Shown here: positions 20,628-49,545 of the stretch, one piece after another
How positions within the stretch are numbered: the stretch's first letter is position 1
Layout of the letters: each line of letters opens with the position of its first letter
Assembly: GCA_043806915.1 (NCBI GenBank)
Contig: JAZDGM010000024.1
Location: 31,240 to 95,239 of the forward strand
Reading direction: 5' to 3'
Origin: Pseudomonadota bacterium
Lineage (GTDB): Bacteria > Desulfobacterota > Desulfarculia > Adiutricales > JAGVGV01
Length of the DNA: 64,000 nucleotides
Notes under the pieces: generated by a model
Seen by the model: only the letters and a program-made list of their open reading frames with translations
Told to the model about the DNA's origin: nothing
Databases searched by the model: none
Made by a program: the position numbers and the translations under genes

Positions 20628-20726
20628 GCGGTCGGTTGAAAATGTAAGGAATATAGCCAAATGAACGTGAGTAAGGCTGGTTCCCAAGCTCTATCTTGGG
20701 AACCTCGGCCAGGGAAGCTCCAGACA
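20628..20726. repeat. Outer extension of the left inverted repeat, including a P1 hairpin (20679-20704)
   Basis: gcggtcggttgaaaatg...gtaaggctGGTTCCCAAGCTctatCTTGGGAACCtcggccagggaagctccag is the reverse complement of 49203-49285, with a roughly 23 nt insertion. Confidence 0.75.
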
Positions 20727-20796
20727 CCTATATGCTTCAACTTCTTTACAAACAGATCAAGTTTTTACTTGACGGTTTGAGGCGAAGCTTCGCCGG

Positions 20797-21052
20797 CTTC
20801 CTCACTCTAGAGATGTAGAGCCCCCGCCCGGCCCATAATCGCCGTCCAGATGATAGACCTTGCCCGGTGAGCCTTCAGGCCTGGGTTCAACGAGACGGAT
20901 GAAATTTCAAACCGATTAATATCGATACCTTCACCGCCGCGCTAGGACTACGGAATGGAAACGCCGCGTTGATTCCCCGTGGTTGCTTTCCGGATAAAGT
21001 GGGGAAGCTAGAGCTTCCCCTTCCCGGGTTCCCAAGCTAGAGCTTGGGAACC
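20797..21052. repeat. Left arm of the ~256 bp inverted repeat (partner 48950-49206); ends in the P2+P1 double hairpin
   Basis: Manual alignment of this segment to the reverse complement of 48950-49206 shows most positions identical. P2 GGGGAAGCTAGAGCTTCCCC is at 21001-21020 and P1 GGTTCCCAAGCTAGAGCTTGGGAACC at 21027-21052. Confidence 0.85.
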
Positions 21053-21204
21053 AGCGGATATTGGATGTCTATGCAAATATTTCCCACCCTCCCCCTCGTT
21101 GGGTCAGAAAAAGCTAACTTGTCGTATTGGCAGCCATATTTACCCTCTCCCTCGGGGAGAGGGCAGGGTGAGGGGCCTTTCAAACCCGCCGCCAAACCCC
21201 GGCT

Positions 21205-21963
21205 TCACCGCTTTTCCAACTCCGCGCCCCCGCGGCCCGAGCAGGCCGGGCAGCGGTCGTTCCTGCCGATGTTGATGGTTTTAAAGGACATTTCCATCCC
21301 GTCGTACACCATTAGCCGGTCGTACAGCGGGCGTCCCAGGCCGGTCAGGATTTTCAAGGCCTCGGTCGCTTGCAGGCAGGCGATCACTCCCGGCGTGGGA
21401 CCCAGGACCGGCGTGACGCCTCCCGCCTCCGGACCCACCGGGAACAGGCATTCCAGGCAGGCCGTCCGGCCGGAGGCGAAGGTGGACAGCATGCCGCAGA
21501 GCCCGTTGACGCCCCCGAAAATCAGGGGGATTCCCCGCGCTAGGCAGGCCCGATTAAGCGCTTTTCTCGTTTCATAATTGTCCAGGGCGTCCAGGACCAA
21601 GTCGTGCCCCTCGATCAGGTCCGCGGCGTTATGCTCGCCCAGGCGGTCTTGAATAATCCGCGTCGAAACCTCGGAATTGAGGCGGGTCAGCTTTTCCAGG
21701 GCCGATTCCGTCTTGGGCCGGCCGAGGTCTTCTTCCCAATGCAGAAGCTGGCGGTTGAGATTGCTCGCGGAAACGTGGTCCAGGTCCATGACGGTCAGGC
21801 CGCCCACTCCCGACGCGGCCAAATACATGGCCGAGATGGAACCCAGGCCGCCCAGGCCCGCGATAAAGACCCGGGACCGGGCCAGCTTGGCCTGCCCTTC
21901 CCGCCCCAGGCCCTCGATAAGCGTCTGCCGCTCGTAGCGCGCTTCCAACCCGGATGCCGTCAT
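21205..21963 (-). CDS. ThiF/MoeB/HesA-family E1-like adenylyltransferase
   Basis: YERQTLIEGLGREGQAKL, the nucleotide-binding loop IAGLGGLGS, and NLNRQ. Two CxxC pairs (CLECL, CPAC). Start taken at the ATG at 21963. Confidence 0.85.
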   Translation of the reverse strand: MTASGLEARYERQTLIEGLGREGQAKLARSRVFIAGLGGLGSISAMYLAASGVGGLTVMDLDHVSASNLNRQLLHWEEDLGRPKTESALEKLTRLNSEVSTRIIQDRLGEHNAADLIEGHDLVLDALDNYETRKALNRACLARGIPLIFGGVNGLCGMLSTFASGRTACLECLFPVGPEAGGVTPVLGPTPGVIACLQATEALKILTGLGRPLYDRLMVYDGMEMSFKTINIGRNDRCPACSGRGGAELEKR

Positions 21964-22608
21964 GCCCGCTCCTCCCCTGGGGTTTCGGCCGATATCGGCG
22001 CGAAAAAAATTTGGCCCGAAACGAAACAAGGTCAAAAAACAAATGGAATGTCAGCGACATCTGTCCGGGAATACACCGCTGCGATTATAACAACCGAAAA
22101 CATTTTCGCAAAAGGAAAATACGACCGTTGCCAGGCGCTTCGGACGGCGGCGCCGGGGGTTGGAGCAGGGACGCTGGTAATTCACCGGCTGAAATCGCCG
22201 GGACGGCGCCTGGGAGCCGGCCGTGAAAAAATATTAGATGCATCAAACTTTTTCCTTGCTTTCCCGAAACTCCATGGTATGTTGCCTCATTCCGGCGAAG
22301 CTAGCGCTTCCCCCGGCGGGGGGGAGACGCCGGGCGGCCGCCGACTTGAAGGAGAATGCGCCACCTCGAAAATTGCCGCCCCGGCAGCCCCCCAGCACAA
22401 GCCAGGCAAACCCAAGGGCGGCGTCAACGCCGGCGAGGCGGAAGAGTCATGTTTTTCCATGGTAACCCAAAAGAGCGGAAAACTTAATATTGCCCGGACA
22501 TTCGTCGGCTAGTATCGCCCAAATCCCGGAGCGAGTGGGGGGCGCTGGGGCGTAAGGCCTGACGGGACATCAATTATAAGAGTATAAGAGCGAAAAGGGG
22601 TTTTCAGT

Positions 22609-25066: not shown

Positions 25067-25117
25067 GGGGAAGCTGGAGCTTCCCCGCCCGGGTCCCCAA
25101 GCTAACGATTGGGAACC
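25067..25117. repeat. REP-like double hairpin (P2 25067-25086, P1 variant 25092-25117) 3' of the MCP gene
   Basis: GGGGAAGCTGGAGCTTCCCC followed by GGTCCCCAAGCTAACGATTGGGAACC. This is the same two-hairpin module seen at 21.0 and 48.95 kb. Confidence 0.75.
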
Positions 25118-25252
25118 AGCCCTTGAGGCTAGACCGCCGCGCCAGGGGGTTCGGCCGGCGGGCGCCCCGGTTTGGCTCGGACAAGCCGGCGCGGCGCGGG
25201 TTGATGGCTTTTCCCGACAAAAACTTATTTGGACAAGGGCCGAGGCCGCCGG

Positions 25253-26990: not shown

Positions 26991-27998
26991 TTAATCCTCG
27001 CCGAAGCGGCGGCCGCCGATTTCCAGGAAAGTCCCGACGCCCCTCTTCCCGGCTTCCTTTAAAATAAAAGCGGCGGCGGCGATATCTTCCACGGCCAGCC
27101 CCAGGGACTTGAACAGGGTGATTTCCCGGTCGTTTTGGCGGCCGGGTTTGAGGCCGGCCAGGACTTGGCCCAGTTCGCCGACAATATGGCTTTCATCCAC
27201 CAGCCCTTCGTCCCGCGGGATGAGGAAATCGCCGGCCTCGGCCACAAGCGCTTCCTTTTTGTCCGCGTATAGCCTGGCTTTCAGCACGCAGTTGGAGTCG
27301 AGCTCCCGGGTCTGGGGCCGAAAGGCGCCCACCGCGTTGATATGGGCGCCGGGCGCCACCCAGTCTCCCGACAAGACCGGCCGGGCGGCGGAAGTGACCG
27401 TGCAGATGATGTCGGCCCCTTCGACCGCTTCCCGGGCCGAGGGGACCGCTTCGACCGTCAACCCGCGTTTCCGGGATTCACGCCGGGCGAAACTGGCCGC
27501 GTTCTCGGGATTGCGGCTGAAAACCCGGACCCGCCGGATGTCCCGGACCAGCATCATGGCTTCGAGGTGAGCCGCGGCCTGGGCGCCGGACCCGAGCAGG
27601 GCCAGGTCCCCGGCCCCGGGCCGGGCCAGGGTCCGGGTCGCGACCCCGGATACGGCCGCGGTCCGGATGGCGGTCAAGGCCGTGGCGTCGACAATGGCCC
27701 GAAGCAAGCCATGGCCGGCCTCGAACAAAAGCACCACCCCGATGTGGGAATCGTGGGGCCCGCCCTCGTTTTTCGGAAAAGCGGAAATGACCTTGATCCC
27801 CATGGCCTGGAGGTCGTCCGCGTAACCGGGCATCCACCCCATGATGCTCTCGCCGTCGGGCAGGACGATTTTTGATCTCAAGGGCATGATAACGCCCCCC
27901 CGGGCCATCCCTTCCAGAGCCTCGGCCATGACTTCCAGGCAGGAGGCCATGGGCAGAAGCTCACGGACCTGATTCTGGTCCGCGATCAGGACTTCCAT
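26991..27998 (-). CDS. Ornithine cyclodeaminase / mu-crystallin family NAD(P) enzyme
   Basis: Family-typical length (335 aa) and Rossmann segment LALLGSGAQAAAHLEAM. Last gene of the corrinoid operon. Confidence 0.85.
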   Translation of the reverse strand: MEVLIADQNQVRELLPMASCLEVMAEALEGMARGGVIMPLRSKIVLPDGESIMGWMPGYADDLQAMGIKVISAFPKNEGGPHDSHIGVVLLFEAGHGLLRAIVDATALTAIRTAAVSGVATRTLARPGAGDLALLGSGAQAAAHLEAMMLVRDIRRVRVFSRNPENAASFARRESRKRGLTVEAVPSAREAVEGADIICTVTSAARPVLSGDWVAPGAHINAVGAFRPQTRELDSNCVLKARLYADKKEALVAEAGDFLIPRDEGLVDESHIVGELGQVLAGLKPGRQNDREITLFKSLGLAVEDIAAAAFILKEAGKRGVGTFLEIGGRRFGED

Positions 27999-28025
27999 AA
28001 TTTGCCTCCCGGTTTCACCGCGCCC

Positions 28026-29453
28026 TTATTTCTTTTTAAGAATGTATTCGATTTCGGACTTGACCGCCTCGTCCAGTGGCGCCGGCTGGTGCGCTTCCAT
28101 GACGGCGATGGTTTTGTCCTTGAGGCGCTTGCCCAGGGTCGGGCCGCCCTTGGACAGCCAGCGTTCCTTCCGGTCCCGGTTGAACAGGGTCGGCTGCCAG
28201 AGCCGGCGGAAATTCTTGTACGTGTGTTCGGCGGTCATGTAGTTGCCGCCGGGGCCGATCAGGTGAATCTGGTCCAGGGCCATGGATTCCTCGTCAAAGG
28301 AAATCCCTTTTTCGAAGGTCCGCATCATGTCGATGCATTCGTCGGCGAAAACGATCAGCTCGGGGGAAGTGGTCAGGCCGGATTCCATGTACCCCACGTC
28401 GTGGGCCAGGTGCTCTCCCGTCAAGAACCCCATCATAATGGTCGTGGCCGCGTCCGAGGCCGCCTGTTCGTCCATGTTATTGCTGTCCGTGTGCCCGGCG
28501 TACCCGAAGTGGGGCAAGCGGTAATACCGGCCCATGTCGGCCGCCGCCGCCCGGGCCAGCATCCATTCCGGGGCGTTGTACACGCTGATGGAGGTCCGCA
28601 TGTCCATGTGATGCAGGCCGTTGCCGTACATGAAGGGCGCGCCGGCGCGCTTGAGCTGGTGGATGACGATGCTCGAAAGCACCTCGGCGTTGCCCAGGGC
28701 CAGGGCGCCGGACAAGGTCACGGGCGCGGCCCCGCCCATCATGGGCGAGGGCTGATGCACCACGGGCACGGCCTTCTCGGCGGTGAACAGGAGTTTTTCC
28801 AGGGAATCCCTGGGCTGCACCAACGGGGTGGTCATCTGGCTGTAGCTGAGCAGGTTGGGGTTGAGCCGGAGGTTATCCTCGCCGCCGGCCGCCGCCGCCA
28901 TGGCGTAAATAGCCTCGCAGTCGGCCCGGTTGTCGGCGATAAAAACAATGGGCTTGGCCGTGTATTCCAGCATCAGGGCGAACTGGGTCTTGAACCGGTC
29001 GTGCTCGGGAGTGTCGGACGGGGCGCCCATGGACATGCAGAAATCGATCCGGGGCAGGGCGTCGACCAGCCGGATGCAGTCCTTGATCTCGCTGGTGGTG
29101 AAGGGCCGATGCTTATCGGTCTTGGGGTCCAGGTAATTGGCGCAATCCGAACCCGTGCCGAAATGGACTTCCCCCTCTTCCAGCCGAATCGCCGCCTCGT
29201 TCCCGCCCCGGCGGCAGAGGACCAGATGGGACGGCGCCTGGCGCAAGGCCCATTCCACCAGGTTGGCGGGCAGGAAGACCAGGGTTTCGTCCTTGATCAC
29301 CGCGTCGGTTTGTCTCAGCAGGTTCAAGGCCTCGGGGTGATGAACGCGAACGCCGGTGCGCCGCAGTATCTCCAAGGAAGCGCGATGAACGAACGCGCAT
29401 TGTTCCTCGCCGAGGAGACTGAATTTGGCCTTGGCCTCGGGAATTTTCGACAT
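28026..29453 (-). CDS. MttB-superfamily methyltransferase, non-pyrrolysine type (paralog 1)
   Basis: 475 aa uninterrupted ORF showing the MttB family pattern (EEQCAFVHRASLEILRRTGVRV..., HFGTGSD, GGAAPVTLSGAL, NYMTAEHT). No internal TAG. Co-operonic with the corrinoid protein and the pterin-binding methyltransferase. Confidence 0.88.
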   Translation of the reverse strand: MSKIPEAKAKFSLLGEEQCAFVHRASLEILRRTGVRVHHPEALNLLRQTDAVIKDETLVFLPANLVEWALRQAPSHLVLCRRGGNEAAIRLEEGEVHFGTGSDCANYLDPKTDKHRPFTTSEIKDCIRLVDALPRIDFCMSMGAPSDTPEHDRFKTQFALMLEYTAKPIVFIADNRADCEAIYAMAAAAGGEDNLRLNPNLLSYSQMTTPLVQPRDSLEKLLFTAEKAVPVVHQPSPMMGGAAPVTLSGALALGNAEVLSSIVIHQLKRAGAPFMYGNGLHHMDMRTSISVYNAPEWMLARAAAADMGRYYRLPHFGYAGHTDSNNMDEQAASDAATTIMMGFLTGEHLAHDVGYMESGLTTSPELIVFADECIDMMRTFEKGISFDEESMALDQIHLIGPGGNYMTAEHTYKNFRRLWQPTLFNRDRKERWLSKGGPTLGKRLKDKTIAVMEAHQPAPLDEAVKSEIEYILKKK

Positions 29454-29532
29454 TACTTCCTCCTTGCGTCATCCTTGGGCCGGAATGCGGCCGCCGGCGA
29501 ATGTGTTTTCAAGGGCTAGGGGAGCGGATGAA

Positions 29533-30663
29533 TCAGTCCCGGTCCATCTTCCCGGCCAGGTCCCGGTAGCGCCGGGCGGCCCGTTCCACCGCCTCGGGGT
29601 TCAATTGTATTCCCAACCCCGGCCCGGACAAAAGCCCCAGACAACCGTTTTTCAGGACCAAGCCCGGGGCCGCCAACAGGTCCTCGGCCAGCAACTGGTG
29701 CATGATCTGGTTGCCCTCGGTCAGATTGGGGACGGTCAGGGCCGCGTGGTGCTGGGCCAGGTCGGTGACGCCGGAAACCGACTGCCCATGCAGGCAGATG
29801 GACAGGCCGGCCGCCTCGGCGACGGCCGCGGCCTTGCGAAAAGCCAGCAACCCGCCGACCTCGTGGATTGATAAAACCAGGACGTCGGCGGCCCGGCGAC
29901 GGCAGATTTCATAGACGTCCTGAATGGTGAAAACCCCCTGGTCCGCGGCGATGGGGACCCGGCAGGATTCCTTGACCTGCTTGAGCGCGGCCAGGCTCCG
30001 GGCCGGGGTCGGCTGTTCGATGAACTCCGGGTCGAAGCGGGACAGCAGATTGATCATGCGGATGGCGGATGCGGGGTCCCAGGCTTCGTTGGCGTCCAGG
30101 CGCAGCCGGCGGGCGCCGATCACGGACCTGACCGCCGCGACGTTCTCCAGGTCCCGGGCCTCGCCCCGGCCGACTTTCAGATAAATGACCGAATGGCCGG
30201 CCGCGACCGCGGCCGCCGCCGACGCGGCCAACTCCTCGGCCGTGTCGCCCTGGGGAAAGCCGAAATAGTCCACCTCGGACCGAAAGGCCCCGCCCAGCAA
30301 CTGGTAGACCGGGCGGCCCGCCGCCTGCCCAATGACGTCCCACAGGGCCATTTCCAGCCCGGCCAGGGTCAGGGCCGCCAGCCGGGGCAGGTCGTTGAAC
30401 CCGCCCAGATGGCGGGCCGACCACATCAGGTTTTCGATATCAAAGGGAGACCGGCCGATCAAACCGGGGATGATCGCTTTCAGAAGCCCCAGGGCCCCCG
30501 TTCCGGGCGCCGGGGCCGTGGATTCCCCCAGCCCGACCAAGCCCTCGTCCGTTTCCACCCGGATGAGCAACACGGCCGCGCCATGGTCGACCCGGCCCGC
30601 CCAGTGATAGGGCTCCCGAAAATCAAGGAAGAGAGGAACAGGTTCGATCGCCGTTATTTTCAT
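29533..30663 (-). CDS. Enolase-superfamily enzyme (mandelate racemase / muconate lactonizing family)
   Basis: N-terminal capping domain plus a barrel with metal-ligand motifs RLDANEAW, FIEQP and IAADQ. The Lys usually found before the VGG motif appears replaced (LSIHEVGG), so subgroup and reaction are unassigned. Confidence 0.85.
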   Translation of the reverse strand: MKITAIEPVPLFLDFREPYHWAGRVDHGAAVLLIRVETDEGLVGLGESTAPAPGTGALGLLKAIIPGLIGRSPFDIENLMWSARHLGGFNDLPRLAALTLAGLEMALWDVIGQAAGRPVYQLLGGAFRSEVDYFGFPQGDTAEELAASAAAAVAAGHSVIYLKVGRGEARDLENVAAVRSVIGARRLRLDANEAWDPASAIRMINLLSRFDPEFIEQPTPARSLAALKQVKESCRVPIAADQGVFTIQDVYEICRRRAADVLVLSIHEVGGLLAFRKAAAVAEAAGLSICLHGQSVSGVTDLAQHHAALTVPNLTEGNQIMHQLLAEDLLAAPGLVLKNGCLGLLSGPGLGIQLNPEAVERAARRYRDLAGKMDRD

Positions 30664-30694
30664 CCCAGGCGGGCCCCCTCGTCCGGCGCCGGGC

Positions 30695-31492
30695 TCAGCC
30701 GGGCAGCCGTCCGGCCCGAAAGGCCTTCAGATATTTCATGCAATAATCGTCGCGACCGGCCAGGGCCTCGGCGGCGATAATGCCCGTCATCATCTTTTCA
30801 TCCAGGGGGTTGACGATGGCCCCGTCCAACCCCTTGGCAATGGCCATCATCATGAAGGTCTGATTCAAAAATTTCCGTGAAGGAAGTCCAAATGAAATAT
30901 TGGACAGGCCGCAGGCGGTGTGAATGCCCGGATAACGACTCCGAATCTGTTCCACGGCCTCGAGAAATTCCCGGCCGAAGGAATTGTTGACGCTGACCGG
31001 CTGCACCAGCGGGTCCACGAAAATATCGTCCAACTTCACGTTGCTTTGAACCAGGGCGTTGACCAGCTTGTCCGCGATGCGCAGCCGGTCTTCCACGGTC
31101 TGGGGCATGCCCTCGTCGCTCATGCACAAGGCGATGACCTTGAAACCGGAACCGGCGACAAGGGGCATCAGCTTGTCGAAGCGGTCTTTTTCGAGGGAAA
31201 TCGAGTTGATCATGGGGGCGCCCCGGTGGACGGACAACCCGGCCTCGATGGCCTGGGGGTTAGGGCTGTCCAGGGCGCACGGCTTGTCCGTGACCGCTTG
31301 CACGTTCTCGACCAGCCACTTCAGGTATTCGGGCTCCTGGTGGACGAACACCCCGGCGTTGACGTCGATGAAGTCCGCGCCGGCCTGGGCCTGGTCAAGG
31401 GCCGTCTTCCTGATATAGTCGGCGTCCTGGGCCGAAATCGCCTGGCCGATGGCTTTTCGGCTGGCGTTGATCAATTCTCCGATAATAATCAT
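30695..31492 (-). CDS. Methyltetrahydrofolate:corrinoid methyltransferase (pterin-binding, MtgA/AcsE/MtrH-like)
   Basis: MIIIGELINASRK, DFIDVNAG, INSISLE, GLSNISFGLP: pterin-binding barrel motifs. Start taken at the ATG at 31492. Confidence 0.85.
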   Translation of the reverse strand: MIIIGELINASRKAIGQAISAQDADYIRKTALDQAQAGADFIDVNAGVFVHQEPEYLKWLVENVQAVTDKPCALDSPNPQAIEAGLSVHRGAPMINSISLEKDRFDKLMPLVAGSGFKVIALCMSDEGMPQTVEDRLRIADKLVNALVQSNVKLDDIFVDPLVQPVSVNNSFGREFLEAVEQIRSRYPGIHTACGLSNISFGLPSRKFLNQTFMMMAIAKGLDGAIVNPLDEKMMTGIIAAEALAGRDDYCMKYLKAFRAGRLPG

Positions 31493-31628
31493 GTCGCGTC
31501 TCCGGCGCCAACCTCGGACCAGGAGCGGCAAGACGCCTTTCCGCTCCCCCGGCCGGGTCGGCTGAAATGAATCGCTCCCAAAACGGGCGGCGGAGGCGTC
31601 CCGCCCGGCCCGCCTCGAGGCGCGGAAA

Positions 31629-32261
31629 TCAGCTCAACATGCCCTTGGCCAGTTTGACCGCGGAACCGGCGTCGGTGGAAAAACCGTCCGCGCCGATCTC
31701 GTCGGCGTAGGCCTGGGTGACGGGCGCCCCGCCCACCAGGATTTTCACCTTGTCCCGCAGGCCGGCCGTCTTGACGGCCTCGATGGTGGCTTTCATCATC
31801 GGCATGGTCGTGGTCAAAAGGGCCGACAGGCAGATCAGGTCCGCATGCCTGGCCTGGGCCTGGCGCACGAATTCCTCGGGAGCGATGTCCACGCCCAGGT
31901 TATGCACTTCCAGGCCCGAGCTTTCCAGCATCATGGCCACCAGATTCTTCCCGATGTCGTGCAGGTCGCCCTTGACCGTGCCGATGACCACCCGGCCCCG
32001 AACCCCGGCCCCGCCCTCGCCCAGCAGGGGCTTGAGAATTTCCACCCCGGTCGCCATCACCTGCGCGGCCATCAGGACCTCGGGGATGAACATGTCCCCG
32101 TTCTCCATCTTTTCGCCGATAACGTCCATGCCCGGGATAAGACCCTGGGCCAGTATCTCCCCGGCCGAAACGCCGGCGTCCAGGTCCCGTTTGACATAGC
32201 CGGCCAAAACGTCCCTGGCCCCATCCATAAGCGCCTGCAAATACTTCTCCTTATCGACCAT
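31629..32261 (-). CDS. Corrinoid (cobalamin-binding) methyl-carrier protein
   Basis: B12-binding signature GDLHDIGKNLV (DxHxxG), plus SALLTTTM and ILVGGAPV. 210 aa, like MtgC/MttC-type proteins. Confidence 0.9.
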   Translation of the reverse strand: MVDKEKYLQALMDGARDVLAGYVKRDLDAGVSAGEILAQGLIPGMDVIGEKMENGDMFIPEVLMAAQVMATGVEILKPLLGEGGAGVRGRVVIGTVKGDLHDIGKNLVAMMLESSGLEVHNLGVDIAPEEFVRQAQARHADLICLSALLTTTMPMMKATIEAVKTAGLRDKVKILVGGAPVTQAYADEIGADGFSTDAGSAVKLAKGMLS

Positions 32262-32296
32262 TTCAGCCTCCTGGTATTAAATGGCGTCCATTGCCC

Positions 32297-32457
32297 GCGC
32301 GTTTTCGAAACGCGGTCCGGTTCGTTTACGGTCAAGCCCCGGGCCTTTTTTCCGGTTGTTCCAGCCCTTGTCGGGGCGGCTCGCGGCTCGTTTTTTTTCG
32401 CTTGACATGGTCAGGCCTTGACTGTATGACTATACTTGTATAGACGATATGTCAAGC
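32297..32457. promoter_or_regulatory. Divergent control region with palindromes (candidate HutC/GntR operators)
   Basis: CGCGTTT-tcg-AAACGCG at 32297-32313. GCTTGACAT at 32400-32408 is paired with ATGTCAAGC at 32449-32457. These enclose TGTATGACTATACTTGTATAGAC, which contains GTAT-N4-ATAC and GTATAGAC elements. TTGACA and TATACT hexamers are also present. Confidence 0.35.
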
Positions 32458-32582
32458 AAAAAACAAATACCTCCCCCCGCCGAAAACTTTCGAAAACAAC
32501 GGCCGGCGGAGGTCCTTCAACCGACTCGGCGACGCGAGGGGTCGACTTCGACCCGGGGCGTTTTTCGGAAAAGAGCACAGCC

Positions 32583-33377
32583 ATGGACCTTAATTCCCAA
32601 AACTTTTCCCGAAAAATCGACGACAGCCCGCTCCCCTTGTACCAAAAGCTGAAAAGCCTGATTGCCACCCGCATCCAAAAAAAGGAATGGCTGCCGGGCC
32701 AGCAGATACCATCCGAGGCGGAATTCGTCGAAACCTATGGCATTTCGCGGATGACGGCCAGCCGGGCCCTGCGGGAGCTGACCTCCGAGGGGTACCTGGT
32801 CAGGGTCCAGGGAGTGGGCACCTTCGTGGCCAGGCGCAAGCCCAAGGCGGATATGCTGCAAATCCGCAGCATCGCCGACGAAATCAGGGAACAGGGCGGC
32901 CTGTATTCCAACCGGGTGGATGTTCTGGTGGAGGAGCCTGCTTCCGAGCCGGTGGCCGAGGAGATGGAAATCGCCCCCGGGGAAAAAGTCTATCACAGCA
33001 TCATCGTGCATCTGGACCGGGGCGCGCCCATCCAGATCGAGGACCGCTATGTCGGCGTCGACATCGCCCCCGAATATATCCGGCAAAATTTCACCCGGAT
33101 CACGCCGACCCAGTATCTACTGGATATCGCCCCTCCGGCCGAGGTGGAGCATCTCCTGGAAGCGATCCTGCCGGACAAGAAGACCATGAAGCTCTTGAAG
33201 ATCGGGCCTCGCGAACCCTGCCTGGTGCTTCATCGGCGCACCTGGACCGCGGGCCGGGTGGTCACCTCGGTCAAGATGATCTATCCCGGCTCCCGGTACC
33301 GGATCGGCGGTCATTTCCGGCTCGACGAGTCCGGCCCCGCCGGTTCCGGGCCGCGCGGGTTTTCCTTCATTCCATGA
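32583..33377 (+). CDS. GntR-family transcriptional regulator, HutC subfamily (UTRA effector domain)
   Basis: wHTH segment PLYQKLKSLIATRIQKKEWLPGQQIPSEAEFVETYGISRMTASRALRELTSEGYLVRVQGVGTFV plus a UTRA-sized C-terminal domain. Lies 19 nt upstream of the hutH-like gene. Confidence 0.85.
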   Translation: MDLNSQNFSRKIDDSPLPLYQKLKSLIATRIQKKEWLPGQQIPSEAEFVETYGISRMTASRALRELTSEGYLVRVQGVGTFVARRKPKADMLQIRSIADEIREQGGLYSNRVDVLVEEPASEPVAEEMEIAPGEKVYHSIIVHLDRGAPIQIEDRYVGVDIAPEYIRQNFTRITPTQYLLDIAPPAEVEHLLEAILPDKKTMKLLKIGPREPCLVLHRRTWTAGRVVTSVKMIYPGSRYRIGGHFRLDESGPAGSGPRGFSFIP

Positions 33378-33396
33378 AAAACCGGAGGAACAGATA

Positions 33397-34926
33397 ATGA
33401 ATGCCATTATTCTCGGCGTCGACGGCATGACCATCGAGGACCTGGTCGCCATCGCCCGGCGCGGGGCGAAGGTCCAGGCCTCGCCGGAAGCCGTCCGCCG
33501 CATCGTTGAAACCCGGCGGCTGGTGGACCAATGGGTGGACCAGGGCCGGGTCATCTACGGCGTCACCACCGGCTTCGGGGCCCTGAGCGGGGTCACGATC
33601 TCCAAGGAAGACACGGGCAGGTTGCAATACAACATCCTTTTGAGCCATTCGGCCGGAGTGGGCGCCCTGTTGGACGAGGAATCCGTGCGGGCGATCATGG
33701 CCCTACGGATCAAGGACATCGCCCGGGGACATTCCGGGGTGCGGTTGGAAACCTTCAACCATCTGATCAGGCTTCTCAACGCCGGAGTGGTCCCCTGCGT
33801 GCCGGAAAAGGGCTCGGTCGGCGCCAGCGGAGACCTGGTGCCCCTGGCGCACCTGGCGCTCCCGCTCATCGGCGAGGGGGAAGCCTTTTATCAGGGCCGA
33901 CGCCTCGGCGGCCGGGAAGCCCTGCGAGCCGTGGGGCTGGAACCGCTGCGCCTGACCTCGGCCGAGGGGCTGGGCTTGCTCAACGGCACTCAATTCATGG
34001 GCGGCCTCGGCGGGCTGGCCGTGCACGACGCGGGCCTTCTTTGCAAGCACACGGACATCGCCGCATCCCTGAGCCTGGAAGTGCTCATGGGCAGCCGGAC
34101 GGAATTCGACCCCAGAATCCAGCGGGTCCGCCCCCACCCCGGCCAGGCCGCGGCGGCGGACAACATGCTGCGCCTAACCCAGAACAGCGAAATAATCTCC
34201 TCCCACAAGGACTGTTCCCGGGTCCAGGACGCCTATACCCTGCGCTGCTCCCCCCAGGTGCATGGGGCCAGCCACGACGCCATCGAATACGCCCGGCGAG
34301 TGCTGGAAACCGAGATTAATTCGTCCACCAACAACCCCCTGTTCTTCCACGAGGAAGGCGATTTTCTCCTGGGCGGCAACTTTCACGACCAACCCGTGGG
34401 CCTGGCCATGGATTTCCTGGGCATCGCGGTCGCGGAACTGGCCAACATTTCCGAACGCCGGGTCGAGCGCCTGGTCAACCCCATGCTCAGCGGCCTACCG
34501 GCCTTTCTGGTGAGCGAGGGCGGGCTTAACTCGGGGTTCATGATCGCCCAGTACACGGCCGCGTCCCTGGTTTCGGAAAACAAGGTCCTGGCCCACCCGG
34601 CCACCGTGGACTCCATCCCCACCTCGGCCAACAAGGAAGACCACGTTTCCATGGGCGCCATCGCGGCCCGCAAGGCCAGGCAGATAGTGGAAAACACGGA
34701 AAACGTGCTGGCCATAGAACTGCTCTGCGCGGCCCAGGCCATGGACCTGTTCACCAACATGAAGCCCGGCGAGGGGTCCCTGCGGGCCCACCAGGTCATC
34801 AGGGAAACCGTGTCCCATTTGGACGAGGACCGCCTGTTGGCCAGGGACATCGCCGCGGTCAGGGCCTTGATCAAGTCGGGCCGCCTGCTGGAAGCCGTGG
34901 AGGAAACCGTGGGTCCCTTGAATTGA
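33397..34926 (+). CDS. hutH: Histidine ammonia-lyase family enzyme (MIO-type)
   Basis: MIO-forming triad in GSVGASGDLVPLAHL. 509 aa, full-length aromatic amino acid lyase architecture. Confidence 0.88.
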   Translation: MNAIILGVDGMTIEDLVAIARRGAKVQASPEAVRRIVETRRLVDQWVDQGRVIYGVTTGFGALSGVTISKEDTGRLQYNILLSHSAGVGALLDEESVRAIMALRIKDIARGHSGVRLETFNHLIRLLNAGVVPCVPEKGSVGASGDLVPLAHLALPLIGEGEAFYQGRRLGGREALRAVGLEPLRLTSAEGLGLLNGTQFMGGLGGLAVHDAGLLCKHTDIAASLSLEVLMGSRTEFDPRIQRVRPHPGQAAAADNMLRLTQNSEIISSHKDCSRVQDAYTLRCSPQVHGASHDAIEYARRVLETEINSSTNNPLFFHEEGDFLLGGNFHDQPVGLAMDFLGIAVAELANISERRVERLVNPMLSGLPAFLVSEGGLNSGFMIAQYTAASLVSENKVLAHPATVDSIPTSANKEDHVSMGAIAARKARQIVENTENVLAIELLCAAQAMDLFTNMKPGEGSLRAHQVIRETVSHLDEDRLLARDIAAVRALIKSGRLLEAVEETVGPLN

Positions 34927-35025: not shown

Positions 35026-36474
35026 ATGAACCCCGATGAATTTGGATTCAACCCGACCCTGACCTTCCTGTCGGAAGAAGATAAGAAGAAGCTCCATGGG
35101 GGCGTATTGAGGCTTTTGGAAGAGACCGGCATGGCCCTCCAACACGAGGAAGCCCTGAAGCTGCTCGGGCGGGCCGGCGCCGACGTCGACGACCCGGAAC
35201 ACGTCAAAATCCCCTCCAAGCTGGTGGAACAAGCCCTCAAAAGCGCTCCCCATAACATCCCGGTCTACAATCGGGAAGGCGAATTGGCCATGGACCTGGG
35301 CGGCCGCCGGGCCTATTATGGGACCGGGTCGGACCTCATGTCCCATGTGGACGCCAAGACCCTGGAACGCCACCGCACCACCATCGAGGACATCCGCCGG
35401 TCGGCCCTGGTCTGCGACGCCCTGCCCAACATCGACTTCATCATGTCCTTCGCCCATCCCCACGAAGTCGACCCGCACCGGTCCTATTTGGAAAGTTTCC
35501 GGGCCATGCTGGAATACTCGGTCAAGCCCATCGTGAACACCGCCGAAAACCGCCGGGACCTGGAAAAGATGTGGGAAGTCTCCGCGGTGCTGCGGGGCGG
35601 GGAACAACAGTTGCGGGACCAGCCCTACACCATTCAGTACGACGAACCCATCAGCCCGCTCAAGCACCCCTTCACCAGCGTGGACAAGCTGATTTTCTGC
35701 GCCCGCAAGGGCATGCCGGTGATTTATTCCCCCGCGCCCATCGCCGGCTCCACCGCGCCCATCACCATCGCGGGGCATGTGCTGCAGGGCCTGGCCGAGT
35801 CGTTCTTCGGCCTGGTGGTCCACCAGCTCGCGGCCGAGGGCGCCCCGTTCCTGATGGGCATCGGCCCCGCCGTCCTGGACATGTCCACCGGTCAATGTTC
35901 GTACAACGCGCCGGAATACCTTCTATCCCTGGCGACCATGGTGGAAATGACCAAATATTACGACCTGCCCAACTGGGGGTACGCCGGCACCAGCGACTCC
36001 CAGATTCCGGACATGCAAGCTTCGTTTGAAGGCGGCCTGCTGACCTTCATCTCCGCCCTGACCGGATCGAACCTCAACCACGACGTGGGGTATATCGACT
36101 TCGGCCTGACCGGCAGCCTGGAATGGATCGTGATCATGGACGAGATCATCAGCCAGATCAGGCGGATTCAGAAAGGCGTCCCCATCACCGAGGAAACCAT
36201 GGCCCTCCCGGTCATCGCCGAGGCCGGCAAGACGGGTCATTTCCTGACCCATCCCCACAGCCTGAAACACCTTCGTTCCGTCCAGTGGCGGCCCAAGTTG
36301 ATGAACCGCCTGGGGTATGAAAAATGGACCAAGCTCGGCGGGGTCGGGCTGCTGGAAAAAGCCGGCCGGCGAGTGGATGAAATTCTGGCCGGATACCAGG
36401 TCAAGCCGCTCGACCCGAGCGCGGCCCAGGAAATCCAAGCGCTTTGCGCCGCATTCACCGGACTGGAGAAATAA
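35026..36474 (+). CDS. MttB-superfamily methyltransferase, non-pyrrolysine type (paralog 2)
   Basis: 482 aa uninterrupted ORF, alignable by eye to paralog 1 (YYGTGSDLMSHVD.., ALPNIDFIMSF, GSTAPITIAGHV, HFLTHPHS). Embedded between the hutH-like gene and the ABC importer genes. Confidence 0.88.
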   Translation: MNPDEFGFNPTLTFLSEEDKKKLHGGVLRLLEETGMALQHEEALKLLGRAGADVDDPEHVKIPSKLVEQALKSAPHNIPVYNREGELAMDLGGRRAYYGTGSDLMSHVDAKTLERHRTTIEDIRRSALVCDALPNIDFIMSFAHPHEVDPHRSYLESFRAMLEYSVKPIVNTAENRRDLEKMWEVSAVLRGGEQQLRDQPYTIQYDEPISPLKHPFTSVDKLIFCARKGMPVIYSPAPIAGSTAPITIAGHVLQGLAESFFGLVVHQLAAEGAPFLMGIGPAVLDMSTGQCSYNAPEYLLSLATMVEMTKYYDLPNWGYAGTSDSQIPDMQASFEGGLLTFISALTGSNLNHDVGYIDFGLTGSLEWIVIMDEIISQIRRIQKGVPITEETMALPVIAEAGKTGHFLTHPHSLKHLRSVQWRPKLMNRLGYEKWTKLGGVGLLEKAGRRVDEILAGYQVKPLDPSAAQEIQALCAAFTGLEK

Positions 36475-42239: not shown

Positions 42240-44273
42240 ATGCTGAACAACAATCAAATCCTTGAGGCCATGGCTATCAGGCTCGACGAGGTCCCCCGGT
42301 CGACCCCGACCTTCGTCCCCGGGGTCAGGCGGGCGCCCGACCGGGGGTTTCGCCTCACCCCGGCCCAGGCCGCCGCGGCCCTGAAAAACGCCCTGCGCTA
42401 TATTCCGCCGGAGCGCCACGCCGAATTGCTCCCCGAATTTGTGAACGAGCTTAAAACCAGGGGCCGCATTTACGGTTATCGCTTTCGGCCGGAAGGACGC
42501 CTGTGGGCCAAACCCGTCCAGGAATACCAGGGCAAATGCCTGGCCGGACGGGCTTTCCAGGTGATGATCGACAACAACCTGGATTTCGAGGTCGCCCTTT
42601 ATCCCTACGAGCTGGTCACCTACGGCGAAACAGGGGCGGTCTGCCAGAACTGGATGCAGTACCGCCTCATCAAAAAATACCTGGAAGCCTTGACCGAGGA
42701 CCAGACCCTGGTGGTTCAGTCCGGCCATCCCCTGGGGCTTTTCCGTTCCGCTCCGGACAACCCCCGGGTGGTCATCACCAACGGGTTGCTGGTGGGGTTG
42801 TACGACAACCCGGCGGATTGGGAAGTGGCGGTCCAGATGGGGGTTTCCTCCTACGGCCAGATGACCGCGGGCGGCTGGATGTACATCGGTCCCCAGGGCA
42901 TTGTTCACGGGACCTACAACACGCTTCTGAGCGCCGGCAGGAAAATGTGCGGCGTGGCCCCGGAATCAAACCTGGCCGGGCTCCTGTTCGTCTCCTCCGG
43001 GCTCGGCGGCATGAGCGGCGCCCAACCCAAGGCCGCTAAAATTTCCGGCGCGGTCTCCCTCACCGCCGAGGTGGACCCTTCCCGGATCGAGACCCGCCGC
43101 CGGCAGGGCTGGGTGGACCTGGTTTCCAGCGACCTGGACCAGGTCATGATCGCCGCGGACCGGGCCCGGGCGCAAAAGCAGGCCCTGTCCATCGCCTACC
43201 ACGGCAACGTGGTGGACCTGCTCGAATACCTCGACGCCCATGACGCGAGGGTCGATCTGCTCTCGGACCAGACATCCTGCCATGTGGTTTATGACGGCGG
43301 GTATTGCCCCCAGGGCCTGACCTTCGAGGAACGAACGGACATGCTGGCCCGCGACCGGGCCGGTTTCCGCGCCCTGGTGGATAAAAGTCTCCGCCGCCAC
43401 TTCCAGCTCATTAAATCCCTGTCCGCCAAGGGCGCCTATTTCTTCGATTACGGCAACGCCTTTTTAAAGGCCGTCTTCGATTCCGGCGTCCGGGAAGCCT
43501 CGAAAAACGGCGTGGACGATAAGGACGGCTTCGTCTTCCCCTCCTACTTCGAGGACCTCATGGGTCCCATCTTCGACTACGGTTACGGCCCGTTCCGCTG
43601 GGTCTGCCTGAGCGGCAGTCCCGAGGACCTAGCCAAAACCGACCGGGCCGCCATGAGCTGCATCGACCCGAACCGCCGCCCCGAGGACCGGGACAACTAC
43701 AACTGGATTCGCGACGCCGGCGAAAACAAGCTCGTGGTGGGCAGCCAGGCCCGCATTCTGTACCAGGACGCCGGGGGGCGGGTCAACATCGCCCTCAAGT
43801 TCAACGAATTGGTCCGGCGGGGAGAAATAGGGCCGGTCATGCTCGGCCGGGACCACCACGACCCGGGCGGGACGGATTCGCCCTTCCGTGAAACAGCCAA
43901 CATCAAGGACGGCAGCAACGTCTGCGCCGACATGGCGGTTCATGGCTTCGCCGGCAACGCGGCCCGGGGCATGTCCCTGGTCGCCCTGCACAACGGCGGC
44001 GGCACCGGCATCGGCAAGGCCGTCAACGGCGGCTTCGGCTTGGTCCTGGACGGCAGCCGACGGGTCGACGACATCATCGGGTCGGCCATGTCCTGGGACG
44101 TCATGGGCGGCGTGGCCCGTCGCAACTGGGCCCGCAACCCCAACGCCATGGAAGTGGCCGCGGCGTACAACCGGGAAAATTCCAACGGCGACCAGATCAC
44201 CATCCCCTTCCTGACCGAGGAAGGCTTGGTCGAACAGGCCGCGGCCGCGTTGTTCACCACGGACAAACAATAA
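42240..44273 (+). CDS. hutU: Urocanate hydratase family, long (about 677 aa) form
   Basis: MTAGGWMYIGPQGIVHGTYNTL and SSGLGGMSGAQPKA (NAD site) motifs. The length resembles the long, eukaryote-like urocanase class. Confidence 0.88.
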   Translation: MLNNNQILEAMAIRLDEVPRSTPTFVPGVRRAPDRGFRLTPAQAAAALKNALRYIPPERHAELLPEFVNELKTRGRIYGYRFRPEGRLWAKPVQEYQGKCLAGRAFQVMIDNNLDFEVALYPYELVTYGETGAVCQNWMQYRLIKKYLEALTEDQTLVVQSGHPLGLFRSAPDNPRVVITNGLLVGLYDNPADWEVAVQMGVSSYGQMTAGGWMYIGPQGIVHGTYNTLLSAGRKMCGVAPESNLAGLLFVSSGLGGMSGAQPKAAKISGAVSLTAEVDPSRIETRRRQGWVDLVSSDLDQVMIAADRARAQKQALSIAYHGNVVDLLEYLDAHDARVDLLSDQTSCHVVYDGGYCPQGLTFEERTDMLARDRAGFRALVDKSLRRHFQLIKSLSAKGAYFFDYGNAFLKAVFDSGVREASKNGVDDKDGFVFPSYFEDLMGPIFDYGYGPFRWVCLSGSPEDLAKTDRAAMSCIDPNRRPEDRDNYNWIRDAGENKLVVGSQARILYQDAGGRVNIALKFNELVRRGEIGPVMLGRDHHDPGGTDSPFRETANIKDGSNVCADMAVHGFAGNAARGMSLVALHNGGGTGIGKAVNGGFGLVLDGSRRVDDIIGSAMSWDVMGGVARRNWARNPNAMEVAAAYNRENSNGDQITIPFLTEEGLVEQAAAALFTTDKQ

Positions 44274-44355
44274 GGGCGAGGCGCAAGGCCCTTGCCCGGC
44301 GGTCCCGGCCCGGCGCTTCCCCGACCGGATCGGGACCGCGACCCAGGATAGACAG

Positions 44356-45966
44356 ATGAAAAAAATAGTCGAATGCGTCCCCAACTTTTCCGAGGGCCGC
44401 GCTCCCGAAATAATCGAAGCCCTGGCCGCGGCCATTCGCCAAACCCCGGGCTGCCGGCTGCTGGACGTGGACCCCGGCAAGTCCACCAACCGGACCGTCT
44501 ACACCTTTGTCGGAGACCCGGAAGCCGTGGTGGAAGGCGCCCTGGCCGCCGCCCGGGTGGCCCGGGAAAAAATCGACATGAGGCGTCACACCGGCGAACA
44601 CCCCCGCTTCGGCGCCCTCGACGTCTGCCCCTTTGTCCCCGTTTCCGGGGTCGACATGGCCGAGTGCGTGGCCATCTCGAAGGAATTCGCCCGCCGCGCC
44701 GCCGAGGAACTGGGGGTCCCCATCTTTCTGTACGAGGAAGCGGCGCCGGCCGAATATCGTAAAAAGCTGCCCGATATTCGCCGGGGGGAATACGAGGGCC
44801 TGGCTCAAAAATTGACCGACCCCCGCTGGAAGCCCGACTTCGGACCGGCCGAATTCATCCCCTCCTGGGGGGCCTCGGCCGTCGGAGCCCGCATGTTCCT
44901 TATCGCCTACAACGTCAACATCCTCGGCGCGCCCAACCAGGCCCACCGGATCGCCTTGAACCTGCGGGAAGCCGGGCGCGGGGACGACCAGCCCGGCCGG
45001 CTTAGGGAAGTCAAGGGCATGGGGTGGTTCGTCGCCGAATATAACCTGGCCCAGGTGACCGTCAACTTGACCGATTTCCGGGTCACCCCCCTTCACGTTT
45101 TGTTCGAGGAAGTGAAAAGGGAAGCCGCGGCCCTGGGCGTCGGCGTGGCCGGGTCCGAAATCGTGGGGGTCGTCCCCCTGGAAGCCATTCTGGCCGCCGC
45201 CGATTATTATATCGAACACGAAAACCTGTTTATCTACCAGGAAGACCAGAAGGCGCGGCTGGCCGTGGAGCGGCTGGGCCTAAGCTCCGCCAATTTCTTC
45301 AATCCCCGGGAAAAAATCATCGAATACATCGTGGCCGAGCCTCCCGACGAACCCTTGGCCGGCCCGACCCTGCGCGGCTTTATCGAGGAAGTCGCTTCCC
45401 GGTCGTCCGCGCCGGGCGGCGGGTCCGTCTCCGCCGCGGCCGCGGCCCTGGGCGTGGGCTTGGGGTCCATGGTCGCCAAGCTCACCCAGGGCGTGCGCAA
45501 GTTCGAGTCGGCTGAACCCGCCTTGCGACGGGCCATACCCGTTCTGCACGACCTGACCCGGAAACTGATCCCCATGATCGACGCGGATACGACCGCCTTC
45601 AACGAATATATGGCCGGCTTGCGGGCCCCCCGGGACACGCGGGAACAGCGGGAAGCCCGGGCCGCCCAAATGGAAGCCGGGTTGAAAACGGCGGTGGAAG
45701 TTCCCCTGAAAACCATGCGGCTCGGCGACCAGGCCTGGGAAGCGCTCCTGGAAGTCGCCCGATGCGGCAACCCCGCCTCCAAATCCGATGTCCAGGTCGG
45801 CGCCAGGATGCTGGAAACCGGCGTCTGGGGCGCCTACCAGAACGTCTTGATCAATATCACGGGCGTCCAAGACCGGGATTTCAGGGAAACCGTGTTGAAG
45901 GAAGCGGAAGCGATCGCGAACCGGGCGCGGGAAAAATGCGCCTCGGTCCTGGATATTCTGAAATAA
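44356..45966 (+). CDS. ftcD: Bifunctional glutamate formimidoyltransferase / formimidoyl-THF cyclodeaminase
   Basis: N-terminal MKKIVECVPNFSEGR (formiminotransferase) and a C-terminal cyclodeaminase segment SSAPGGGSVSAAAAALGVGLGSMVAKLT. Confidence 0.9.
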   Translation: MKKIVECVPNFSEGRAPEIIEALAAAIRQTPGCRLLDVDPGKSTNRTVYTFVGDPEAVVEGALAAARVAREKIDMRRHTGEHPRFGALDVCPFVPVSGVDMAECVAISKEFARRAAEELGVPIFLYEEAAPAEYRKKLPDIRRGEYEGLAQKLTDPRWKPDFGPAEFIPSWGASAVGARMFLIAYNVNILGAPNQAHRIALNLREAGRGDDQPGRLREVKGMGWFVAEYNLAQVTVNLTDFRVTPLHVLFEEVKREAAALGVGVAGSEIVGVVPLEAILAAADYYIEHENLFIYQEDQKARLAVERLGLSSANFFNPREKIIEYIVAEPPDEPLAGPTLRGFIEEVASRSSAPGGGSVSAAAAALGVGLGSMVAKLTQGVRKFESAEPALRRAIPVLHDLTRKLIPMIDADTTAFNEYMAGLRAPRDTREQREARAAQMEAGLKTAVEVPLKTMRLGDQAWEALLEVARCGNPASKSDVQVGARMLETGVWGAYQNVLINITGVQDRDFRETVLKEAEAIANRAREKCASVLDILK

Positions 45967-45973
45967 CCGCCGG

Positions 45974-48335: not shown

Positions 48336-48369
48336 AAACCCCGCCGAGCCGGGCCGAGGACTGATCTGT

Positions 48370-48738: not shown

Positions 48739-48874
48739 TTTAAGGCCTCCAATTTTTTTACTAATTTTCTTTAAACAAGGCCAAAAAATCAAGAAAAAAA
48801 TCGCAATTCCTTTTTCCCTGTCAGCGGCCAGGTGAAAATGCAAGGAAAAGGGCCAAATGAAAATGAGTGCGGCT

Positions 48875-48926
48875 GTTTCCCAAGCTAGAGCCTGGGAAAC
48901 AGATAATATTGGATGTCTTTTAAAAA
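48875..48926. repeat. P1-variant hairpin plus ATATTGGATGTCT box (direct copy of 21027-21073)
   Basis: GTTTCCCAAGCTAGAGCCTGGGAAACagataATATTGGATGTCT here, versus GGTTCCCAAGCTAGAGCTTGGGAACCagcggATATTGGATGTCT at 21.03 kb. Confidence 0.7.
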
Positions 48927-48949
48927 AGTCTCCCACGAAACCATTTGCT

Positions 48950-49206
48950 GGTTCCCAAGCTCTAGCTTGGGAACCCGGGAAGGGGAAGCTCTAGCTTCCC
49001 GACTTTATCCGGAAAGCAACCAAGGGGAATCAACGCGGCGTTTCAATTCCGTAGTCTTGGCGCGGCGGTGAAGGTATCGATATTAGTCGGTTTGAAATTT
49101 CATCCGTCTCGTTGAACCCATGCCTGAAGGCTCGCCGGGCAAGGTCTCTCCCCTGGCCGGCGATTATGGGCGGTGGCGGGGTAGCAACATCTCTAGAGTG
49201 AGGAAG
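48950..49206. repeat. Right arm of the ~256 bp inverted repeat (partner 20797-21052)
   Basis: Begins with P1 (48950-48975) and P2 (48982-49001). The reverse complement aligns along its whole length with 20797-21052. Confidence 0.85.
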
Positions 49207-49218
49207 CTGGAGCTTCCC

Positions 49219-49545
49219 TGGCCGAGGTTCCCAAGCTAGAGCTTGGGAACCAGCCCTACTCATTTTCAACCGGTCGCTGATATCCGCCTTGACGTATGGT
49301 TCATATTTCATAAAAATCGGATGTCCTGTTTATAATGTTGGATGTCCTTCAAAAAGAAAGAAAGCACTGGCCGAGGTTCCCAAGCTAGAGATTGGGAACC
49401 AGCCCTACTCATTTTCAACCGGTCGCTGATATCCGCCTTGACGTAAGATTCATATTTCATAAAAACCGGATATCCTGTTTACAATGTTGGGTGTCCTTAC
49501 TTGAAGTGTTCGAAAAGAAAGCATTTAAAATTGGATGTCCTTAAT
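49219..49545. repeat. Tandem direct repeat, 149 bp period (2 full units plus a partial), each unit carrying a P1 hairpin and GGATGTCCT boxes
   Basis: Unit 1 starts at 49219 and unit 2 at 49368, both as tggccgaggttcccaagctagag.ttgggaaccagccctactcattttcaaccggtcgctgatatccgccttgacgta... A third partial copy ends with aaaattggatgtcctt near 49540. Confidence 0.85.

Follow-up and report, generated by a model that had tools for sequence, protein, structure and literature searches.

The locus

The subject of this report is a pair of inverted repeat arms, 28 kb apart, in a 64,000-nucleotide (nt) stretch of a metagenome-assembled genome (MAG) of a Pseudomonadota bacterium (assembly GCA_043806915.1, contig JAZDGM010000024.1, placed by GTDB in Desulfobacterota); the whole stretch, whose own numbering is used throughout, is hereafter called the window. 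Each arm is a copy of one long element bounded by hairpins of a repetitive extragenic palindrome (REP) family. Between the arms lies a block of genes that opens on the left with a MoeB-like adenylyltransferase and a chemoreceptor of the Cache/methyl-accepting type. It continues with a serine-dehydratase-like protein, an ornithine-cyclodeaminase-family protein, an enolase-superfamily enzyme, two MttB-family methyltransferases without internal stops, a corrinoid protein, a pterin-binding methyltransferase, a GntR regulator, HutH, an Opp-type ABC transporter, urocanase and formiminotransferase-cyclodeaminase, and it closes on the right with a ferredoxin-domain protein, HypB, HypA and a CGGC-domain protein. 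The block is, in other words, a mixture of functions. Immediately outside the right arm stand a Nitro_FeMo-Co gene, two CbiA/Fer4 genes and NifU.

Two copies of one element

A gapped local alignment of 20618-21055 with the reverse complement of 48947-49291 is identical at 317 of 340 aligned positions (93%), and it joins into a single homology two inverted pairs that a repeat finder reports apart from each other, namely 20821-21055 with 48947-49181 (235 nt, 93% complementary) and 20662-20723 with 49207-49268 (62 nt, 94%). A preliminary description of this DNA, made by manual alignment, had proposed an inverted repeat of about 256 bp that continued outward to about 20628 and 49285, with insertions of about 70 and 23 nt in the left copy and a double hairpin at the inner end of each arm. 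The repeat is real; its outer limits are now placed at 20618 and 49291, and the two insertions measure 73 nt (20723-20795) and 25 nt (20643-20667), the right copy having insertions of 4 nt and 1 nt of its own. The aligned blocks of the left copy are 20618-20622, 20623-20642, 20668-20722, 20796-20828 and 20829-21055, paired with 49291-48947 of the opposite strand. The two arms agree without mismatch over runs of 54, 34, 28 and 26 nt, and the innermost 54 nt, identical between the copies, are indeed the two hairpins, P2 and P1, that had been recognised there. The parts of the two copies are as follows.

20618-21055, plus strand: left copy of the long REP-bounded element, with the 3' ends of the convergent S-adenosylmethionine (SAM) methyltransferase and MoeB-like genes on either side
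20643-20667, plus strand: 25 nt inserted in the outer extension of the left copy, without a second occurrence in the window or among all fetched loci
20679-20704, plus strand: outer P1 hairpin of the left copy, with the REP stem GGTTCCCAAG-N6-CTTGGGAACC
20723-20795, plus strand: 73-nt insertion of the left copy, exactly at the loop centre of the outer P2' (between GGGAAGCTCCAG and GCTTCC), unique in the window
20802-21001, plus strand: core of the left copy, non-coding and without detected relatives
21002-21055, plus strand: inner P2 (21002-21019) and P1 (21027-21052) with AGC tail, 54 nt identical to the right copy
48947-49291, minus strand: right copy of that element, 345 nt, inside the 940 bp that separate the divergent genes for CGGC and Nitro_FeMo-Co
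48950-49000, minus strand: inner P1 (48950-48975) and P2 (48983-49000) of the right copy, found as motif matches
49001-49200, minus strand: core of the right copy, like that of the left
49201-49251, minus strand: outer P2' (49201-49218) and P1 (49226-49251) of the right copy, found as motif matches

The REP module consists of the P1 hairpin, with a stem of 12 bp, followed by the smaller P2 hairpin, which has the same AAGCT-NN-AGCTT centre. Read along the plus strand for the left copy and the minus strand for the right, an arm is composed of an outer extension of about 45-60 nt, P1 (GGTTCCCAAGCTCTAGCTTGGGAACC) preceded by GCT, P2' (GGGAAGCTCCAGCTTCC), a non-coding core of about 185-200 nt, P2 (GGGAAGCTAGAGCTTCCC), and P1 followed by AGC. 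The shorter form of the element measures about 345 nt and the left copy, with both of its insertions, 438 nt; the interval from P1 to P1 is 250 nt in one of the two long copies and 322 nt in the other. The right copy has terminal inverted repeats of its own (48947-49007 with 49194-49254, 61 nt, 85% complementary), and each copy folds as one long hairpin, at -156.5 kcal/mol (z = -8.65) for the right and -165.6 kcal/mol (z = -7.9) for the left, a score that comes from the termini. No open reading frame (ORF) is common to the two copies, the indels of 25 and 73 nt breaking the frame. Neither copy is flanked by a direct repeat or target-site duplication, whether at the ends of the inverted repeats (20676 and 21055; 48947 and 49254) or at the limits of the homology (20618 and 49291).

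The 73-nt insertion terminates in a small GGCGAAGCTTCGCC palindrome. Extra DNA at the centre of a P2-type loop (AGCT-NN-AGCT) is also found in an unrelated gammaproteobacterial doublet (locus L056, 5678-5740; such handles denote loci fetched from other genomes). The positions of these inserts suggest that the loops of hairpins of the P1/P2 family may be preferred insertion points.

The hairpin family

In the window the P1 26-mer has 11 strand-matches and P2 has eight, against 0.00 expected from shuffles in each case, so that chance is excluded. The P1 sites are seven in number, spread across three intergenic regions and all extragenic. A scan for the P1 stem covered species-representative genomes, from which at least 113 stretches (L006-L118) were listed; the counts that follow are among the matches listed. 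Across distant phyla the stem GGTTCCCAAG-N6-CTTGGGAACC is nearly identical. An approximate hand tally by title gives some 38 Planctomycetota, some 34 Desulfobacterota or 'delta' MAGs, some 28 Methylococcales and other Gammaproteobacteria and eight Geomonas/Citrifermentans isolates, together with two Accumulibacter, one cyanobacterium and one Deferribacteres MAG. Several stretches may come from one genome, at least 12 contigs of a single Planctomycetaceae MAG being an example. Methylobacter and others have modules with which P1+P2 of the window (55-60 nt) aligns at 84-88%. Among viral contigs (IMG/VR) P1 has two matches, and it is absent from all 13 loci of relatives (L001-L005, L119-L124, L130 and L131).

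P2 stands on one side only at 84 of 169 P1 sites, and these 84 units, which can be oriented, share one polarity: the loop CTCCAG faces P2, and the opposite side is T-rich and then ends in a conserved YGCT tail, the CT of which is kept in at least 94% of them. Compensatory double changes occur at P1 stem positions. Moreover, the adjacent P1 pairs of other genomes, 57 in number, are mostly compact doublets arranged head-to-head as P1-P2...P2'-P1'; 53 nt is their modal spacing, and such doublets fold as one long hairpin. Locus L107 was considered as a parallel for the long form with a conserved core and was set aside, the conservation being limited to its hairpins. In Planctomycete MAGs tandem arrays of half-sites, for example (AAGCTGGAGCTTGGGAACCAGGTT)n, adjoin P1 (L076 1927-2010, L008 3274-3360, L053 2050-2121, L020 1990-2080), for which two alternative pairing registers are possible.

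With regard to earlier accounts of the hairpin, an exact-sequence search of the literature returned only unrelated human primer matches. The hairpin does not occur in the supplements of PMC3733652 that were compared; the consensus sequences in Figure 1 of that paper, which covers Geobacter, Desulfatibacillum, Rhodopirellula and Accumulibacter genomes, lie outside this comparison, so a prior description is possible.

A transposase between P1/P2 hairpins

The REP-associated tyrosine transposases (RAYT) are HUH/Y1 enzymes of single-stranded DNA, and such a partner is found for the P1/P2 hairpins in other genomes. All-against-all clustering of 2197 ORFs from 113 loci gave no protein family that recurs beside the hairpins; RAYT occurs in few of the hairpin loci, as is expected of a single-copy gene. 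In L059, ORF fragments with a YIHHNPVKRGYV...WRYSS motif lie between a pair of inverted P1 hairpins separated by 442 nt, and in L035 and L117 similar pseudogenes of Y1 transposases stand beside P1, that of L035 retaining an NHLHLI (HUH-like) motif. The L059 fragments have no match in Pfam, their HUH region being deleted. A database search with the fragments joined nevertheless returned 2895 proteins, the best of them uniformly 177 amino acids long, and these homologues carry the names 'REP-associated tyrosine transposase' or 'REP element-mobilizing transposase RayT' at NCBI and JGI. Three of them score 93-102 bits against the NCBIfam model NF047646 (REP_Tyr_transpos), for which the cut-off is 80.

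Where the RAYT gene is intact, it has GCT-P1-P2 upstream and P2'-P1'-AGC downstream. This is the arrangement in L125, a deltaproteobacterial MAG contig that also holds the hairpin locus L083, and in L126/L127, from Methylobacter. The RAYT proteins of the deltaproteobacterial MAG and of Methylobacter are 71% identical; matches on plasmids are five only, the best at 52.5% identity and the others at about 32%. Judged from these arrangements, the P1+P2 module behaves as the REP of a RAYT family. Moreover, since P1-P2...P2'-P1' surrounds an intact RAYT elsewhere, the arms of the window have the layout of a RAYT locus minus its gene, and resemble in this respect a long REPIN (a pair of REPs in inverted orientation that forms a hairpin).

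The core

The core between the double hairpins is found solely in the source lineage, and the full-length element is known from two copies only. In this regard, the hairpin loci contain no relatives of the core. Sensitive blastn against all loci returned only matches with E = 0.06-0.5, and one of these, between genes of the close relative L119, failed on alignment. A search of the window in Rfam at the gathering threshold finds only tRNA-Val, and a search of the right copy at an E-value threshold adds only sub-threshold matches to hairpins of the eukaryotic microRNA type.

A probable non-autonomous REP element

The reading preferred here, at a probability of roughly 0.75, is that the arms are two copies of a non-autonomous element of the REP/REPIN type, with the layout of a RAYT locus, that was copied within the genome, and that their inverted spacing of 28 kb is incidental. 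The element looks like a RAYT locus of which the gene would have been lost or replaced. The hairpin-bounded unit would then have been copied once within the genome, by a RAYT encoded elsewhere that acts on single-stranded hairpins; an alternative route would be duplication of a REP together with flanking DNA, as in the REP clusters, described in PMC3733652, that reiterate units together with the DNA beside them. Such reiteration of REP plus flank would also explain a tandem duplication of 149 nt beside the right copy (see below) and the outward extension of the homology. In either case the copies would have come to rest at intergenic positions that tolerate insertion, the one flanked by terminator-like hairpins of convergent genes and the other within a divergent promoter region, and would later have diverged by 7% and gained two insertions. 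The absence of target-site duplications is as expected of HUH enzymes. Placed by such a process, two inverted copies 28 kb apart would delimit no functional or acquired module. By analogy with other REP units, those of the window may influence transcript 3' ends, a role also suggested by the solo double hairpin 33 nt beyond the chemoreceptor stop codon (see below).

Several observations weigh against this reading. With 250 and 322 nt between them, the P1 hairpins of the two copies stand much farther apart than the usual 53 nt, and the homology runs some 45-60 nt past the outer hairpin, which a segmental copy fits at least equally well. The tetranucleotide tags GTAG or CGTC are not conserved across the 84 oriented units; GTAG or GTAA at 4 nt from the stem occurs solely in three 'extended' P1 copies of the window. 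Within the 64 kb there is no third copy of the long element, and six-frame translations contain no RAYT-like sequence. An exact 24-mer of the core has no match in a collection of genome contigs, and neither a 22-mer of the core nor a lineage-specific 26-mer of the inner terminus has one in metagenomes; these null results are attributable to the absence of the source lineage from those collections. Finally, the idea that the core is itself a decayed RAYT gene was tried with 120 homologues in tblastn and with a local profile hidden Markov model on six-frame translations, which gave nothing.

Alternative explanations

The inverted orientation of the arms had led to the proposal that they are substrates for homologous inversion of the enclosed DNA. 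As a recombination switch they would invert the 28-kb segment by RecA-dependent exchange, either with both orientations coexisting in the population or with the present one as the product of such an event. Such exchange is physically possible, the exact runs of 54, 34, 28 and 26 nt being at least as long as the minimum for RecA-dependent exchange in E. coli, but there is no sign that it has occurred, and an identity of 93% interrupted by indels lowers homologous exchange. Two features hint at a past rearrangement near the right arm. One is that the CGGC gene, which in relatives is co-directional with the Fe-S cluster genes, is here divergent from them; the other is a discontinuity in strand composition near 49 kb, where the raw GC skew turns from negative to positive and the cumulative skew has its minimum (48-49 kb). 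The coding strand, however, accounts for most of the skew at four-fold degenerate sites, so that the raw change of sign is largely a matter of protein composition, and the skew was accordingly rejected as evidence of inversion. A smaller discontinuity is left at those sites: the strand term that remains after the coding strand has been separated out is -0.015 in the left flank, -0.053 in the block and about +0.08 in the right flank; in other words, the block has the same sign as its left neighbour and resembles it, which is not what a recent flip would show. Moreover, flipping the block would place CGGC 28 kb from its cluster, so that the present orientation is the one nearer to the ancestral state. 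A site-specific invertible segment would have an adjacent invertase or recombinase gene and short specific inverted repeats, but neither the genes of the block nor their neighbours have a recombinase domain. An invertible block is thus unlikely; the discontinuity in skew and the divergence of CGGC may together mark an older rearrangement breakpoint at the REP-rich right intergenic region. It had also been proposed that the arms bound a module that was acquired or once mobile, which would make them the ends of a genomic island or decayed composite transposon that imported the catabolic genes. Inverted terminal repeats do bracket catabolic operons here, and the neighbourhood is variable, as judged from the SAM methyltransferase gene to the left of the left arm (19616-20518). 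Its GC content at third codon positions (GC3) is 0.59, against about 0.8 in its neighbours, which makes it the sole deviant gene. Of its homologues (L001 and L005, 84-86% identical), that of Desulfatiglans anilini belongs to a prophage, and a second relative has the gene in unrelated surroundings. It is the SAM methyltransferase gene, outside the arms, that looks most like a recent acquisition in the window. The block itself contradicts the proposal. Its codon usage correlates with that of the flanks at r = 0.986, its GC3 is 0.81 against 0.78, its tetranucleotide correlations to the window profile (0.945-0.972 in the bins from 20 to 48 kb) fall within the range of the flanks, and there is no break in GC; the comparison of codon and k-mer usage therefore reveals no deviation. 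As the preliminary description had observed, no transposase, integrase or tRNA site is visible at the ends. Indeed, neither the block nor its neighbours encode a transposase, an integrase or a recombinase domain, no direct repeats lie outside the arms, and the only tRNA gene in the window, tRNA-Val at 60919, is 11 kb away. The content is mixed and includes housekeeping-type genes such as the MoeB-like and HypA/HypB genes. Synteny is what decides the question. In the three closest relatives with usable contigs, whose CGGC proteins are 84%, 82% and 81% identical to that of the window, CGGC ends a co-directional cluster of Nitro_FeMo-Co, two CbiA/Fer4, Nitro_FeMo-Co and a small protein, with NifU and/or a zinc-ribbon protein also present in two of the three contigs. 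Since CGGC clusters in these relatives with genes that lie here beyond the right arm, that arm stands inside a conserved neighbourhood and is not the border of a module, and an island bounded by the arms is very improbable.

Two further explanations concern the element itself. Its core might be a functional non-coding RNA or a regulatory module, for which the hairpins would act as processing or terminator structures. The 93-94% identity of the copies agrees with this, as does a fold far better than that of shuffled sequences (z about -8), and REP elements are known, according to PMC3733652, to affect the stability and termination of mRNA. The fold score is, however, due to the terminal inverted repeats; the core has no Rfam match, no conserved ORF and no homologue in the collections searched, no promoter-like site was found inside either arm, and the two copies occupy unrelated contexts, one at convergent 3' ends and the other between divergent 5' ends. 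A functional core is for these reasons improbable. The arms might also be artefacts of assembly, by a misjoin at repeats or duplication of a contig end, given that the window comes from a 96.5-kb contig of a MAG, that repeats are classic sites of misassembly, and that the discontinuity in composition coincides with the right intergenic region. This is hardly credible in view of the differences between the copies, which at 7% plus several indels do not allow for one sequence assembled twice. Moreover, each copy lies in an intact intergenic region with unique flanks of its own, and the position of CGGC beside the Fe-S cluster, across the right arm, agrees with the adjacency in relatives. The preliminary description had itself named the circumstance that would make the bracket coincidental, namely that the repeat is a dispersed one. 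This largely holds for the hairpin termini, as members of a REP family dispersed in many copies; the full-length element is known from its two copies only.

Other repeats and genes in the window

Beyond the two long copies, the window contains three further features built from the same hairpins.

25068-25121, plus strand: solo P2+P1 double hairpin, beginning 33 nt 3' of the chemoreceptor stop codon (25035)
48858-48925, plus strand: solo degenerate P1 (48875-48900, with compensatory stem changes) and a GACATCC box; homologue, in direct orientation, of 21029-21077 (84%)
49218-49498, minus strand: tandem duplication with a period of 149 nt (49218-49349 and 49367-49498, 95%)

The 149-nt unit of the last of these repeats the outer P1, the outer extension of about 45 nt and the GACATCC boxes, so that a second P1 stands at 49375-49400. 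The GACATCCAAYATT box occurs eight times in the window, against 1.5 expected. Five of the boxes are within the right intergenic region; the sites lie within 49289-49540 and at 48905-48917, 21057-21069 and 19608-19620. Each tandem unit has two GACATCCAAYATT boxes between sigma-70-like -35 and -10 hexamers (TTCATA-18-TATAAT at 49307-49336 and again at 49456-49485), which are directed at the Nitro_FeMo-Co/CbiA operon. From the pattern of these motifs, the region may be a duplicated promoter with operator sites. At the left arm, two CCTCTCC...GGAGAGG hairpins (20553-20580 and 21144-21162; two found against 0.03 expected) flank the element, each just 3' of one of the convergent genes and the second followed by GCAGGGTGAGGGG. 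By their appearance they may be terminators or belong to another repeat family.

Among the genes of the block, those at 26991-36474 and 42240-45966 resemble a set for the demethylation of quaternary amines (of the betaine type) plus the catabolism of histidine; no imidazolonepropionase was seen among these catabolic genes. In one relative (L131, 6096-8381), with a CGGC protein 78% identical to that of the window, CGGC is directly downstream of dnaA, after a gap of about 590 bp. Elsewhere in the window a direct repeat of 300 nt (9636-9935 and 10970-11269, 92%) coincides with the PAS regions of two histidine-kinase genes that lie side by side, which indicates a recent domain duplication or gene conversion.

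Comparison with known systems

The nearest parallels are the REP/REPIN-RAYT systems (Bertels & Rainey 2011, PMC3116915; Di Nocera et al. 2013, PMC3733652; Bertels et al. 2017, PMC5581495). As in these, the repeats are short, multi-copy extragenic palindromes of which head-to-head units fold as one hairpin; in other genomes a single RAYT gene lies between P1/P2 hairpins of opposite orientation (a 'REPtron'), target-site duplications are absent, and clusters reiterate units plus flanking DNA. The differences are fourfold. The module of the window family has two hairpins, P1 and P2, which share the centre AAGCT-NN-AGCTT; its unpaired tail is YGCT, in contrast to the GTAG or CGTC of the super-families of PMC3733652; the window copies hold a conserved orphan core in an interval of 250-322 nt, in contrast to about 53 nt; and the REP is here nearly identical across phyla.

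Other kinds of repeat share individual features. Miniature inverted-repeat transposable elements (MITEs) of the DDE type are likewise non-coding, intergenic sequences of 300-440 bp that look internally deleted, and the 61-nt terminal inverted repeats (85%) are in keeping with them. However, a target-site duplication is absent, there is no DDE insertion sequence with matching ends, and the ends match instead a Y1/HUH transposase locus. The TIRYT or 'TIRtron' systems, as PMC3733652 presents them, have a tyrosine-transposase gene inside longer or double inverted repeats and moderately abundant free copies of the repeat; the transposase of the P1/P2 family differs in exceeding the cut-off of the NCBI REP_Tyr_transpos model. 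The right intergenic region combines REP units of either orientation with short conserved linkers and repetition in tandem, and in this also recalls the bacterial interspersed mosaic elements (BIMEs), mosaic REP clusters of Enterobacteria, from which the sequence family and the host of the window differ.

Implications

The result is mainly corrective, in that the 28-kb 'bracket' amounts to two copies of a dispersed hairpin repeat, and on present evidence the enclosed genes should be annotated neither as an island nor as an invertible cassette. A wider suggestion, tentative and on balance rather doubtful, is that the P1+P2 module and the 177-residue RAYT have moved between phyla (Planctomycetota, Desulfobacterota, Geobacterales, Methylococcales, Accumulibacter and a cyanobacterium being the groups concerned) recently enough to keep a near-identical REP of 26 nt, and have made unusually long, cargo-carrying REPINs, with a passenger of about 185-200 nt, in the Desulfatiglans-related MAG studied here. 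REPIN-RAYT systems are described as mostly vertically inherited; transfer across phyla, if true, would contradict this vertical, lineage-specific picture. The present REP family thus offers a concrete test case both for the horizontal spread of a REP with its RAYT and for the uptake of internal passenger sequence by such an element.

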